A stretch of DNA of 64,000 nt from Promethearchaeota archaeon (GTDB taxonomy: Archaea; Asgardarchaeota; Lokiarchaeia; Sigyniarchaeales; SOKP01). Shown here piece by piece: positions 2,540-59,449 of the stretch. A program made the translations under genes and the position numbers. Location: contig JAFGGO010000114.1 of assembly GCA_016930515.1 (NCBI GenBank), positions 1-64,000 on the forward strand, read 5' to 3'. The notes beneath the pieces were generated by a model that had not been told where the DNA came from, did no database searches, and saw only the letters and a program-made list of their open reading frames with translations. How positions within the stretch are numbered: the first letter of the stretch is position 1; each line of letters opens with the position of its first letter.

Positions 2540-3037
2540 TGAGAACTCATGTTAAATCTTTATAATTTTGAGCTTTTTGAGAATTTAACTTGTCTTGTAT
2601 AATAATTAAATTATTTTTTTTTATAACATCAATTTTTTCAATAATTTTTAGATGTACCGACCTTTCAATACTCCAATCACGGATATGTTTGCAAACGCAA
2701 CGATGTTTAAAACAATCTCAAAAATTTAGATATTTAAATCGATTGAGGCAATATTAACTAATAAAGTAGGATATTCCTTCGAGTTTGATACATTAGAATT
2801 TTAAAAATTTTGTCCTTTTCATAACTTTAGATTTCGCCGTTGGTAAATCTAGCGTTTTGAGTCATTTCTGAAATTCCATAATAGGTTCATTCAAAATTAA
2901 ATTACTCTATTATAAAAAGATTCCAGATTAAAAAAAGAATTAATTGTTTTTAGGATTCTTAAAATTGAAATAACGATAATAAAAGGGTATTAGTGATAGA
3001 ATAATAAATCCTAAAAGGTGGGAGCAATTTAAGCCGT

Positions 3038-3250
3038 TTATTCGTAAGAGAATAAGAAAGTATAATTTTCCAAGGTAAATTTTTTAATCCGAATATCCTT
3101 CTGCGATTTGTCTTTAAGGAGGGGTATCTTAACGACGAACTTGTAATCGTCGAGATAAACATTATCGTAGAAAGTATTCTGGATTTTGTCGAAATCTATA
3201 AACTTGCTTAGATTTAAATTTTCTTCTGCCAAGGGTGTTTGCATGGACAT
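3038..3250 (-). CDS. Small hypothetical protein (70 aa)
   Basis: Isolated ORF with protein-like composition and a minus-strand TATA (TTTATATA) near 3409-3416. No recognisable motif. Confidence 0.5.
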   Translation of the reverse strand: MSMQTPLAEENLNLSKFIDFDKIQNTFYDNVYLDDYKFVVKIPLLKDKSQKDIRIKKFTLENYTFLFSYE

Positions 3251-52245: not shown

Positions 52246-54651
52246 ATGGCTTTTCAAGAAGATTTTTATGGTTGGTTGCTAGACGCCACAACTTCCGGAG
52301 ACGGAATGTTGCTTTGGGTAAAATTAATCAAGGAGAAAAAGAACGTGCTGCTTCACCACGATTTTCACCCAGAATTTTTTGCCGTCCCAAAATCAGGGAT
52401 TGGTAAGGATTTTACTACTCTAAAGCAAGTGTTGATGTCCCATCCTGGCGTGAAAAGCGTGCGAACCTGCGATAAATATATTAGTTTAGAAGATCAAACT
52501 AAATCGACGGTATTCGGGGTGCGCATCGAAAAACCTTCCTTATTCAAATCGACGACTAAAGAAATAGGCGAGATTGATCTTTTCACCTTATATAACATCG
52601 ATATTCCCATTTCTCAAATGTATTTTTATGAGAATGACTTATTTCCAATGGCATTCTGCCGTTTTAAAGTTGCACTCAATAAGAAAGGGCTTGATTCAAA
52701 GGAGTATATTCGATTGATCTCCTTGGATTTAATGGATAACAACGAGAAGTTGTATTACGAGTTACCACCACTTAAAGCAATTTGGTTAGATGTTAATATT
52801 CGTAAAAAAGGACTGAGACCGTATTTTAACGATCCCTTGATATGCACAGAAATTAGCATCGTTGAACAAGACGAGAGCGGAATACCAAGAGCGGACGGAA
52901 AGCGAAAAAGAAAGATCTGCATAGATCTAGCGGACGAAGCAGAGATCCTAAAAAAGACAAGCGAAGTTATCGAAGAGCTCGATCCCGACATCGTCCTCAC
53001 ATGCGGTGGAGACGAGTTCGTATTCCCGTATTTAATTGCTCGAGCTTCAGAGAACGGGGCATCTCATAAACTCTACTTTTCGCGAACGAAAACACCTTTA
53101 AAGCAATGCATTTTTAACCTATCAGGAGGATCCGACCACTACATGTCGTATGGAATGATAATGCGTCGATCAAAAACCCAGGTCTATCTAACAGGAAGAT
53201 TCCACTTGGATACGACAGCGTATGGAAGCCTTCATTTCAGCGAGGGAAACATTCCAGGTGTCATCGAAGTAGCTCGTGTTTCTCGCGTTCCTCTCCAAAG
53301 GTTATGTCGCATTACCATAGGAGGAGCACTACAATCCATCCAATTTTACAACGCTTACAAGCTGGATCACTTGATTCCGCCTTTTAAAAAAAGTCCGGAA
53401 GGATTTCGAACGGGAATGGACTTGATTAAAGGCGATCGCGGGGGACACATCTTCGAACCCATAGTAGGAGTATTTGATCAAGTGGTCGAGCTGGATTTTT
53501 CGTCTATGTATCCTTCTCTCATGGCAAATTTTAACATATCTTCGGAAACAATCAATTGTGCCTGTTGCAAGGACGACGGCACGGGCATCAAGGTACCGGG
53601 ATTGAACTTTTACATCTGCTCGAAAAGGGAGGGCATCATATCCAAATCGATACGACTCCCGCTCGAAAAAAGGTTAAAGTACAAGAAAATCGCTCGCGAT
53701 ACCGGCAACCTTCGATATAAGTTTACCGATATTGCCTTGAAATGGGTTCTTGTAGTTTCTTTTGGATATTTAGGGTTTCGAAACGCGCGCTTTGGCAAGA
53801 TCGAAGCGCATCAGACGGTGTGCGCGTTCGCTCGCGAGTTCTTGATGCGTTCCGCAGAAATCGCGCAAAATCACGGCTGCAAGGTCGTTCACGGGATCGT
53901 GGATTCGATATGGCTTCAAGACGAGAAGAACAGGGATCCAGAAGAGTTTAAAGAAGTAACCCGAAAAGTTGCTCAAGAGATCACGGAACACACCAGCATT
54001 CAGATGAGTTGGGACGGCTTTTTCGATTTCATCGTCTTTCTTCCCTCTCGCGCCGAGCCTGACATACCGACGCTCAATCATTATTGGGGCATCAAGAAAG
54101 GGGGTGAAGTGAAGGTAAGAGGGATCGAAGCTCGCAGGAGAGACGCACCAAACATCATAAAAGAAGCGCAACTAGCGTTTATCGAAGAATTTAAAGGAGC
54201 AAAAACGGTAGAAGAGTTCGTTTCAAGAGTTTCCAAGGCAAAAAGTGTTTTCTACGAATACATTGACAGGATTGAAACGGGTCGAGCATCGAGGGAGCAA
54301 CTCACGATCAAGCAAAAAATCTCCCGTTCACCCGCCCAATACAAGGTAAACTCGTATCAAGCAGTTGCCGCCAAGCAATTGGAACGATCTGGCGTCGTTG
54401 CTTCCGCCGGAAAGAATGTGCGCTATATCATTTTAGACGCCGAAGCAAGTCCCGATTTTCCTGAAAGAAAAGTCGTACTATCCGATCTTTACGACCCCAA
54501 GAAACACCATTACGACAAGAAAAAATACGTGGAATTACTGAAACGAGCGTTCGAAAACATCGTGCCGTTCCCGATTCCCGAATTGGACGATCTTGTAAAG
54601 TCCGATTTTAACAGGAAATCCACGCAAAAAAATATCACGAATTTCGTTTAA
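52246..54651 (+). CDS. polB2: Family B DNA polymerase, PolB2/Dpo2 group
   Basis: Motif A DFSSMYPS, motif B KWVLVVSFGYLG, altered motif C HGIVDS (vs YGDTDS), KVRGIEARRRD, degenerate exonuclease; C-terminal PIP QKNITNFV. Confidence 0.92.
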   Translation: MAFQEDFYGWLLDATTSGDGMLLWVKLIKEKKNVLLHHDFHPEFFAVPKSGIGKDFTTLKQVLMSHPGVKSVRTCDKYISLEDQTKSTVFGVRIEKPSLFKSTTKEIGEIDLFTLYNIDIPISQMYFYENDLFPMAFCRFKVALNKKGLDSKEYIRLISLDLMDNNEKLYYELPPLKAIWLDVNIRKKGLRPYFNDPLICTEISIVEQDESGIPRADGKRKRKICIDLADEAEILKKTSEVIEELDPDIVLTCGGDEFVFPYLIARASENGASHKLYFSRTKTPLKQCIFNLSGGSDHYMSYGMIMRRSKTQVYLTGRFHLDTTAYGSLHFSEGNIPGVIEVARVSRVPLQRLCRITIGGALQSIQFYNAYKLDHLIPPFKKSPEGFRTGMDLIKGDRGGHIFEPIVGVFDQVVELDFSSMYPSLMANFNISSETINCACCKDDGTGIKVPGLNFYICSKREGIISKSIRLPLEKRLKYKKIARDTGNLRYKFTDIALKWVLVVSFGYLGFRNARFGKIEAHQTVCAFAREFLMRSAEIAQNHGCKVVHGIVDSIWLQDEKNRDPEEFKEVTRKVAQEITEHTSIQMSWDGFFDFIVFLPSRAEPDIPTLNHYWGIKKGGEVKVRGIEARRRDAPNIIKEAQLAFIEEFKGAKTVEEFVSRVSKAKSVFYEYIDRIETGRASREQLTIKQKISRSPAQYKVNSYQAVAAKQLERSGVVASAGKNVRYIILDAEASPDFPERKVVLSDLYDPKKHHYDKKKYVELLKRAFENIVPFPIPELDDLVKSDFNRKSTQKNITNFV

Positions 54652-56858: not shown

Positions 56859-57875
56859 ATGAACGAATACGACCTTTCTTACTTGTTTGAGATTGGATTT
56901 AATGAAATTCAAACCAATACCTATAAATATCTCCTTTCTCACAAGTCTGGCACGATAAACCAGATCAAAAACGATTTAGGATATTCTTACGCTCAAGTTA
57001 ATAATGCGCTGATTTTTTTAAAAGAGAAGAATCTCCTCGAGGTTTCCTCAGATTCAAAACCTAGTCTATTCGTTCGAAAAAATCCAAAAATCGCCTTGAA
57101 CAACTTATTTAACGAGTGGTTCCAGAAAATTGAAAAAAGCATCAAGCAACTCGACGAGGTCATCAAGATTCAAGAGACTAAATTTGGTCGATGTGTAAAA
57201 GAAGTCACCTTCTATTATTATTCGGATCTGGCGTTGGGAATAAATAATTTAGAAACGATGATCGAGAGAGCGGAATGCGAAATTTTAATGACTTCCTTAC
57301 CAATATCGCTTTTAAAAAAGATCGAACCGTCGCTTTACAACGCATTCACTAGAGGAGTTTCCCTTAAGATGTATTTTTCAGAAGCCGATTTTGAACGAAC
57401 TGAAAACTACCTAGAACGAATTTTAGACCTTTTAAAACGCGTGAGGATTAGAATAATCCAAACAGGAGAAAAAATCTGCCAAGTTGTGAGGTACAACGAC
57501 GAGATAGTAAACTCTGGAAATGTTTTTATCGACAATAAATTCTTGAACTCTATCGTTTTTAACGAGAACAACGTGCTTGCTTTTGATGGGCATTTTAATC
57601 CTGGCGTGATTCAACAAGTCAAGAAGTATTTTGATCTAAAAACAGCAATAAAGATTATTGAGATAGAATATCCAGAGCCGATCAAAAGCGTTTTGAACGC
57701 TATTGAACGAAAAAAGGAGATCAAAACCAGAGATCTGAGCCAAATATTAAAAATAAGCGGAAAAAAGCTGAGAGAAGTGCTCGATTTTCTGATAAACGAG
57801 GGAATTATTCGTGAAGAAATCGTGCAACAAGAACAAGTTGGTAGACCTAAAAGAATTTATTCTATCGTAGAATAA
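56859..57875 (+). CDS. TrmB-family transcriptional regulator with extra C-terminal HTH
   Basis: LFEIGFNEIQTNTYKYLL...QVNNALIFLKEKNLLE...KPSLF..NPK TrmB wHTH; effector domain (MIERAECEIL, AFTRGVSLKMYF); C-terminal HTH with GRPKRIY. Confidence 0.85.
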   Translation: MNEYDLSYLFEIGFNEIQTNTYKYLLSHKSGTINQIKNDLGYSYAQVNNALIFLKEKNLLEVSSDSKPSLFVRKNPKIALNNLFNEWFQKIEKSIKQLDEVIKIQETKFGRCVKEVTFYYYSDLALGINNLETMIERAECEILMTSLPISLLKKIEPSLYNAFTRGVSLKMYFSEADFERTENYLERILDLLKRVRIRIIQTGEKICQVVRYNDEIVNSGNVFIDNKFLNSIVFNENNVLAFDGHFNPGVIQQVKKYFDLKTAIKIIEIEYPEPIKSVLNAIERKKEIKTRDLSQILKISGKKLREVLDFLINEGIIREEIVQQEQVGRPKRIYSIVE

Positions 57876-58000
57876 TCAAGCGATTTTTCAATCGTATTTA
57901 GAATCGTTCATATCAAGTCGATATTATCAGCTCGTAAATAATTTACTATTTAAAAATTCTGTTCTAACTATAAAATAAAATAGAACTGTTTTGAGCTTCT

Positions 58001-58261
58001 ATGGAGATTTTCATAACTTATATTTCAATGGGACTGTCATTAGTTTTAATTATCGGATTCTTATACTTGTTGTTTTCTAATAAATCGCTTAAAAAGCGAT
58101 TGGAGGATATTAAAAACGATATAGACCTTTCAACTGCGATTTACGAGATAAACGACGAAAGACAGAATAAATTTAAGAAAGCACCTCCCTTGAAAGCGAA
58201 ATTAAAAACAGAGGTCGAAGACTCATGTCAATTATCGTTAGATTTTTTTTTCAAAAAATAG
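58001..58261 (+). CDS. Single-pass membrane microprotein with C-terminal PIP box
   Basis: TM at residues 3-25, charged linker, terminal QLSLDFFFKK. Confidence 0.65.
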   Translation: MEIFITYISMGLSLVLIIGFLYLLFSNKSLKKRLEDIKNDIDLSTAIYEINDERQNKFKKAPPLKAKLKTEVEDSCQLSLDFFFKK

Positions 58262-58402
58262 TGGTGCTTGCTCAAACAAGTTTATTTATAAAACTTCATT
58301 ACCTATAAGGAAAGAAAATCACATCTATCTATATTTATTTGGTGGTGTAAAATTCGATATATTGAATACCAAGTCGTTTTAGGAGATTCTCCCGGAAGGT
58401 TA

Positions 58403-59449
58403 GTGGTAGAAGACATCAAGAAAGTTGCAAGTAAGGGAGAAAAAAAGGAGCAAGCACCATTACCTCAAGAACAAAAGAATGTCTTATATGGAGAAGGTAT
58501 AATCCATCCGCTCTCTGAAGAGACTTATCTTTGGACCTATTCCCTAATCTATAGGAACAAGAATTTCGATGTCATAAAGTTTAAATCAAGCTGGTCCTGG
58601 AAGGCCGATCCAGAAGGTGTTCAAGACTTAGTTATGGACAAGGCTTCTCATGTAGGTGTCGTTGCAGGTGTGTTTTTCATAATGATTGACGATCAAGTCG
58701 AGGAGAACTTTTCAAAGCTAGCAGATATGATGGATGCATTTATTGAAAAAACCAGCTCGCAAGAAGCCCCATTTATCGTGTATGGATTGATAGAAAACAA
58801 GCAGAAAATCGCTGAACTCAAAACTAATAAGGACCAACTAAAGAACTTGTCAGATGTGAAAAACTGGGTGCAAAAAAACGGGGGAGAGTTTCGACTCGAA
58901 AATCTAACTGAAATACAGGCAAATATCCAATATTTGGTCTCAGATTACACGCACTTCATCTTGACGAGCACAAAAGCAACAACTAGCTATCCTGGACTTA
59001 AAATAGGAGAGGTTCATTTCTTGGATTACGAAGACCTTAGCGCCTTACAAGAAATCGAAAAAGCCTTAAAGGAACAACTTAAAGCGGGTGAAACCGTGGA
59101 TAATTTGCTTTCCCAACTGTTTTTCAAGTACCTCAAAAAAATAGAGTTCAAAGAGGAGATATTCGAACGACCCGTTGAAGTCGTGGAAGCAAGCGTGCCT
59201 ACAATAGAACCAGGGGTACCGCCCCCCTCTAAAATCAAGATAATTTTAGAGGAAATTCGAAGAGGGATCAGGCGCCAATGTCCCAAGTGTTTTAACTCGG
59301 ACAGGGAAATGATACGAGAAGTGATTGATCACGATAACTTGATATACGACTTTGGGACCGATAAGATTTATGGATTTAAATACATCTGCGGACAGTGCGG
59401 TCACGAGTGGAAAACTGAAAAAGATTGGGCTTCCGAAACGGTTGATTAA
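58403..59449 (+). CDS. Hypothetical protein: degenerate GTPase-like alpha/beta domain + C-terminal Zn ribbon
   Basis: GVFFIMID...ENFSKLADMMDAF...APFIVYG segment; RRQCPKC...YICGQCGHEW. Confidence 0.75.
   Translation: MVEDIKKVASKGEKKEQAPLPQEQKNVLYGEGIIHPLSEETYLWTYSLIYRNKNFDVIKFKSSWSWKADPEGVQDLVMDKASHVGVVAGVFFIMIDDQVEENFSKLADMMDAFIEKTSSQEAPFIVYGLIENKQKIAELKTNKDQLKNLSDVKNWVQKNGGEFRLENLTEIQANIQYLVSDYTHFILTSTKATTSYPGLKIGEVHFLDYEDLSALQEIEKALKEQLKAGETVDNLLSQLFFKYLKKIEFKEEIFERPVEVVEASVPTIEPGVPPPSKIKIILEEIRRGIRRQCPKCFNSDREMIREVIDHDNLIYDFGTDKIYGFKYICGQCGHEWKTEKDWASETVD

Follow-up and report, generated by a model that had tools for sequence, protein, structure and literature searches.

The 86-aa microprotein encoded in the window (the whole stretch of 64,000 nucleotides analysed here, G000:C168) probably holds or sequesters the clamp PCNA at the cell membrane. 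We consider it reasonably likely, from sequence comparison, that this is a membrane-anchored PCNA-binding microprotein, and competing capture or sequestration of the clamp is the action that we favour for it. An earlier note on this DNA had described an ORF of 86 aa with an N-terminal membrane helix and a canonical PCNA-interacting (PIP) box, QLSLDFFF-KK, at its C-terminus. The ORF listing and the hydropathy bear out this anatomy, and the comparison with relatives goes further, since the motif behaves as a PIP box across the orthologues and mirrors that of the host's own FEN1. The features discussed are collected in Table 1. In our labels, G stands for genomes, C for contigs, L for loci and P for database or metagenome protein sequences; G000, the host genome, has 35% G+C, consists of 190 contigs and is 94% complete.

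Table 1. Features of the microprotein gene, its neighbours and the PIP-tailed proteins of the host genome (positions are those of the window unless a contig is named)
Feature	Position	Strand	Remarks
A/T-rich TATA-like box	57970..57981	+	20-31 nt upstream of ATG, read from sequence
Microprotein gene	58001..58261	+	86 codons + TAG; ATG start (ORF listing)
Membrane helix, residues 3-25, invariant Y-L-L at cytoplasmic end	58007..58075	+	hydropathy 2.26; AF2 pLDDT ~90
Basic juxtamembrane stretch and conserved amphipathic helix, residues 26-60	58076..58180	+	alignment, AF2
K/R-rich linker, residues 61-76, weakly conserved, predicted disordered	58181..58228	+	pLDDT <50 (residues 61-78)
PIP box, residues 77-84, Q-L-S-L-D-F-F-F	58229..58252	+	alignment, codon changes, matrix rank
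T9 homopolymer within Phe codons	58243..58251	+	sequence
Two Lys codons and stop	58253..58261	+	stop three codons past F83 in every orthologue
TrmB-family regulator, upstream neighbour	56859..57875	+	PF01978, PF11495
365-aa protein, no known family, C-terminal Cys4 ribbon, downstream neighbour	58352..59449	+	
PolB	52246-54648		tail Q-K-N-I-T-N-F-V; confirmed family-B polymerase, PIP-like tail
PolD DP2			C-terminal tail Q-Q-K-L-S-D-F-F
Y-family polymerase			tail Q-Q-S-L-T-P-F-L...
FEN1	G000:C126:23449-24339		tail Q-V-S-L-D-N-F-F-K-K-N-K
FEN1 paralogue			PIP-pattern tail
Nre-like protein			PIP-pattern tail
DUF72 protein (L070)	G000:C78:2040-2906		canonical PIP-box tail
DUF72 protein (L071)	G000:C120:3984-4790		canonical PIP-box tail
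Deoxynucleoside-kinase / thymidylate-kinase-like protein (L072)	G000:C139:4005-4724		tail Q-M-N-I-N-K-F-F

The gene sits in a spacer of 527 bp, where an open frame of 86 codons is not rare, and the ORF listing contains no competing frame of at least 40 aa on the opposite strand. The putative TATA box has a near-identical counterpart, at equal spacing, in the alignment with the G003 orthologue locus. Being so close to the ATG, such a box would leave the mRNA with little or no leader.

Six-frame searches of 60 relatives gave two clear matches, both from the same genus (G003, E 2e-15; G005, E 2e-7). When 1.84 billion representative proteins were searched with a profile, three further sequences and nothing else were returned: P0002, which belongs to a sister strain of G003, P0003, which is 86 aa long, and P0004, which is truncated at a contig end. 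These five orthologues are syntenic, all complete ones are exactly 86 aa long, and the start (ATG/TTG-GAG-AT) is conserved among them. Wherever it can be read, the gene order is constant: an HTH/TrmB regulator (replaced by a cupin in G005) comes first, followed by the microprotein, the Cys4-ribbon protein (about 365 aa) and an aminotransferase, and the last gene, on the opposite strand, encodes about 160 aa. The TrmB regulator itself is syntenic in G003 and in its sister strain (L076), and an HTH protein takes this place on the contig of P0003. Uncorrected pN/pS amounts to 0.287/0.62 between G000 and L076 and to 0.199/0.507 between G005 and L075; in the linker (codons 52-76) pN is 0.42-0.65 in the more distant pairs and 0.25 in the closest one (G005 and L075). 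Judging from these comparisons, the gene is real and selection acts on it at the level of the protein.

It may be asked, nevertheless, whether a functional protein is made at all. The conserved 3' end could be a DNA element, for example the site of a regulator ahead of the promoter of the downstream gene, or the ORF could be young and drifting. The protein is indeed an orphan: Pfam and NCBIfam contain no family that matches it, a word-indexed protein search returned only the protein itself, the ESM Atlas has no look-alike at 0.9 or above, and the single match among PHROGs (phrog_8566, a family of unknown function, E 4e-4) was judged to be at chance level or compositional. In addition, a conserved TATA-like box follows about 50 nt downstream of the motif. 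Further, the gene of G003 (C361, L006 about 1650-1700) is frameshifted by a deletion of 4 nt within a TTTATTTA repeat. However, the 86-codon frame is intact in the sister strain (L076, about 3000-3060), so the deletion is either an assembly error or a very recent decay. Moreover, the motif DNA varies where the amino acids are kept: the orthologues use TTA or CTT for L78 and for L80, TCG or TCA for S79, and TTT or TTC for F83. Such synonymous variation in the motif, next to a linker that diverges, argues for conservation of the protein and against a DNA element. The length stays at 86 aa across pS values of about 0.6-0.7, conservation extends to the membrane helix and its Y-L-L-K boundary, and Rfam gave nothing meaningful for the region. 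In our opinion, it is very improbable that no functional protein is encoded here.

The N-terminal part of the encoded protein has the features of a membrane helix. Residues 3-25 are without charge and K/R-rich residues follow; averaged over 19 residues, the Kyte-Doolittle hydropathy is highest at residues 7-25, and the five-sequence alignment (A3) shows no change in Y22, L23 or L24. A cleaved signal peptide was considered and rejected, as a basic n-region is missing, the hydrophobic span runs uninterrupted for 23 residues, and the positive charges come after it. The helix is preceded by M-E and followed by four K/R within nine residues in all orthologues. According to the positive-inside rule, this distribution of charges would place the tail in the cytoplasm.

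The earlier note had stated that the protein has room for no other domain. This has to be corrected, as residues from about 28 to 55 form a second conserved element, predicted to be an amphipathic helix, in which K31, I37, D42 and A46 are invariant (A3). The hydrophobic residues of this stalk are spaced i/i+4/i+7/i+11 and are conserved at positions 30, 34, 37 and 41. The stalk could lie on the membrane or associate with itself; the signal is weak. An AF2 monomer model built from the five-sequence alignment has a single helix over residues 2-60, with confidence declining after the membrane part (mean pLDDT 66), then disorder over residues 61-75 and a short helix at 76-85. Such a predicted arrangement, a helix, a disordered stretch and a short terminal helix, is how tethered PIP peptides typically appear.

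At the extreme C-terminus of the protein stands Q-L-S-L-D-F-F-F-K-K, encoded at 58229-58258. The published consensus of the PIP box is Qxxhxxaa (PMC6204406). Residues 77-84 fit the pattern Q-x-x-[L/I/M]-x-x-[F/Y/W]-[F/Y/W or hydrophobic], and so do the corresponding residues of all five orthologues. In alignment A3, Q77, L78, S79, L80, D81 and F83 are invariant; position 82 is F, F, F, I or N, and position 84 is always hydrophobic (F, C, I, L or M). Counted from the glutamine, positions 1, 4 and 7 are fixed, position 8 stays hydrophobic and position 6 is free, which is, as far as the alignment tells, the register of a PIP box. The motif would also be well exposed, since it ends two residues before the stop and follows the K/R-rich stretch 61-75 that is predicted to be disordered. 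The earlier note had suggested a check across Lokiarchaeia for joint conservation of a membrane helix and a terminal QxxLxxFF. In the orthologues Q77, L80 and F83 are fixed and positions 82 and 84 vary, and the family was found in one genus only.

The earlier note had also cautioned that the Phe codons lie in a homopolymer. The run is T9 in G000, T8 in G003 and L076, and T6 in G005, and it is absent from L075. We reject a frameshift artefact at this place because the runs of the orthologues differ, yet all of them stop three codons after F83, so that the end of the frame is unchanged.

How easily could such a tail arise by chance? The strict pattern Qxx[LIM]xx[FY][FY], required within the last 14 residues of ORFs of 50-100 aa, is present in 11 of the 7,859 short ORFs of G000, and about 0.2 occurrences are expected per 64-kb window. 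At this rate a single occurrence is not significant; the significance comes from the comparison of orthologues. On a position matrix trained on nine client tails of G000, with the microprotein left out, the microprotein ranks 12th of 11,916 ORFs. Two ORFs that did not take part in the training stand above it; both are located inside longer genes, in other frames, and were discarded.

Eight replication and repair proteins of G000 end in the PIP pattern, and the tails collected in Table 1 allow a direct comparison. The tail of the microprotein differs from that of FEN1 essentially at two x positions. The PolB gene is in the same window, and this proximity to the microprotein gene may be a coincidence. 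Among the membrane proteins of G000, no second one with a convincing PIP tail came to light; an FtsX-like permease that ends in Q-V-S-I-K-N-Y was judged to be a chance match.

Several of the other tails deserve attention in their own right. DUF72, a TIM barrel, has UV-damage endonuclease as a relative and shows enrichment near polB2 (PMC11791011); the PIP tails on the two DUF72 proteins support a clamp-linked role in repair. The kinase-like protein (L072) may be an enzyme of dNTP salvage that docks on the clamp. A small GTPase of the Ras family (G000:C111:79485-80159, L073) ends in Q-D-S-I-E-K-F-V-A, a relaxed PIP-like sequence that may be due to chance.

The PCNA gene was not found in the G000 assembly with PF00705, PF02747 or a tblastn search using the PCNA of G005. 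As 19 of 21 relatives have the gene, the microprotein carriers G003 and G005 among them, this absence is probably a gap in the assembly (94% of the genome is covered). The PCNAs of G003 and G005 are 266 aa long and match solved archaeal clamps with E ~1e-31. G003 contains, besides, a second, divergent PCNA-like gene (G003:C145:1744-2106, L055) that is located beside small proteins rich in Zn fingers; it may be a clamp of a mobile element or virus, or a contamination.

Certain features of the motif can be held against PCNA as the partner. Motifs of the PIP type are short, and position 8 is a Cys in one lineage. Further, L78, S79 and D81 are invariant although they correspond to free positions of the PIP consensus, and for this reason the pocket that receives the tail could belong to another protein, or could be a clamp pocket with extra demands. 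Hence, one may propose that the tail has a different partner, such as the protein encoded by the downstream gene, and that its PIP resemblance is coincidental; the 365-aa Cys4-ribbon gene does follow the microprotein gene in every locus found. We consider this quite improbable. The same S and D positions are found in the FEN1 tail of the host, and the Cys4-ribbon gene occurs throughout the family without the microprotein, and has a promoter-like box and a Shine-Dalgarno sequence of its own. In addition, by an estimate from residue frequencies, a conserved terminal octamer would come to lie in the PIP register with a chance of roughly below 1 in 1,000.

The Cys4-ribbon gene has a peculiarity of its own. 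Its conserved N-terminus (x-R-Y-I-E-Y-Q...) begins with ATG in G005, G014, G028 and L075. The aligned codon is ATT in G000 (window 58340-58354), G003/L076, G001, G015 and G006 (loci L026, L029, L030, L033, L076). A Shine-Dalgarno sequence, GGTGG or GGTGA, is found 4-6 nt upstream of this ATT, and there is an in-frame stop just before it; G009 and G010 also have Ile at this position. An ATT start codon seems to have been retained in several genera, and the gene probably does not begin at the GTG (58403) that the ORF listing gives. The AF2 model of the protein (pLDDT 44.6) was too poor for use.

We now turn to the distribution of the microprotein. A search of 121 family genomes from 13 genera with the A3 profile found it in G000, G003 and G005 only, which means 3 of the 6 species genomes within the genus and none of the 115 other genomes of the family. 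Upstream of the 365-aa gene, no such ORF is present in the syntenic spacer of G001, which belongs to the same genus, or in that of six other genera; the contig of G004 ends at this spacer. A degenerate DNA pattern of the tail with its stop was also run over 161 genomes of the class, and it gave the three known loci and 8 further hits, against 8 in the reversed control. One of the 8 extra hits is a real ORF (G150:C102:2220-2252, L086), which encodes an unrelated, soluble protein of 306 aa in another genus. This protein ends in Q-L-S-L-D-R-F-L-L-K and is another candidate client of the clamp, as yet uncharacterised.

Based on this distribution, the microprotein gene is a young, genus-restricted addition. 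Given its absence from the syntenic site of G001 and its narrow distribution, the protein must be dispensable. The earlier note had seen in it a possible chromosome-membrane link in Asgard archaea. A general link of this kind is not supported: a protein found in one genus only, and absent from the syntenic sites mentioned, would rather be a lineage-specific partner or modulator of the clamp.

The same evidence bears on the idea that the microprotein is a structural tether, which anchors DNA-loaded clamps, and hence forks or fresh DNA, to the membrane and serves the positioning of the replisome or segregation. The anatomy of the protein agrees with this idea just as it does with our preferred reading. 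The homotrimeric clamp offers three sites, and the weak heptad-like pattern of the stalk could bundle several tails. There is also a precedent for the location, as EdU and PCNA1 foci are seen at the cell periphery in Sulfolobus, where the authors proposed a membrane tether (PMC3384333). On the contrary, a core tether should be widespread, whereas this family is confined to half of the genomes of one genus, with seven syntenic absences, and the microprotein evolves fast outside its motif. We regard a core structural tether as unlikely, and less likely than a lineage-specific modulator.

Our preferred reading, capture or sequestration of the clamp by a membrane-anchored microprotein, would work as follows. 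The microprotein would span the membrane once, its N-terminus facing outward and its tail reaching into the cytoplasm. On the cytoplasmic side a helical stalk (about 35 residues) would lead, through a basic and disordered linker (about 15 residues), to the C-terminal PIP box, which would plug into the hydrophobic pocket of PCNA under the interdomain connector loop. As this pocket is the site of FEN1, PolD, PolB and other clients, the microprotein would compete with those, and PCNA would be held at a distance of no more than about 10 nm from the inner membrane face. The likeliest effect would be a local capture or sequestration of the clamp by a lineage-specific modulator acting in the manner of p21 or TIP, though bound to the membrane. 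We favour this effect because the distribution is narrow, the gene is dispensable and the tail copies that of FEN1.

PIP boxes are known on soluble proteins of replication, repair and the cell cycle. In the literature we found no description of an integral membrane protein with a PIP box as its only other recognisable feature, nor of membrane-anchored PIP proteins in archaea. If the tail does bind PCNA, some of the clamps of the cell are located at the membrane. This could be a new control of replication by sequestration, or it could be a physical contact of membrane and replisome, such as was raised for Sulfolobus with no molecule known (PMC3384333). Were the tether to prove true, it would be the link that was proposed for peripheral archaeal replisomes and never identified. 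The generality of the finding is limited, in any case, by its restriction to one uncultured genus.

Among known systems, the closest likeness is offered by FEN1 of the host itself. Like the microprotein, it carries Q-x-S-L-D-x-F-F-K-K at its extreme C-terminus after a flexible basic stretch, and both presumably use the same pocket of PCNA. However, FEN1 is a soluble nuclease of 340 aa, while the microprotein has no enzymatic domain, is membrane-anchored and shares no homology with FEN1 outside the motif.

Other parallels are more distant. p15/PAF is a short, largely disordered protein, and its PIP box competes with replication enzymes for PCNA. The C-terminal PIP box of p21(CIP1), likewise a short and largely disordered protein, competes with these enzymes as well (PMC6204406). 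The microprotein resembles both, but they are soluble, nuclear and restricted to eukaryotes, they have no membrane anchor, and their sequences are not related to it. The bacterial beta-clamp motif, QL(S/D)LF, has a Q-L-S-L core identical to that of the microprotein (PMC6204406). The spacing to the aromatic residue differs (Q-L-S-L-D-x-F in the microprotein), and in an archaeal host, which has PCNA, a beta clamp is unexpected; we take this resemblance as convergent. Finally, TIP, the Thermococcales inhibitor of PCNA from T. kodakarensis, targets PCNA near the interdomain connector loop (PMC6204406), and it is a small, lineage-restricted archaeal protein, as is the microprotein. TIP is soluble, uses a non-canonical motif together with an amphipathic helix of 17 residues and breaks the trimer, whereas the motif of the microprotein is canonical and terminal, and the protein is bound to the membrane.
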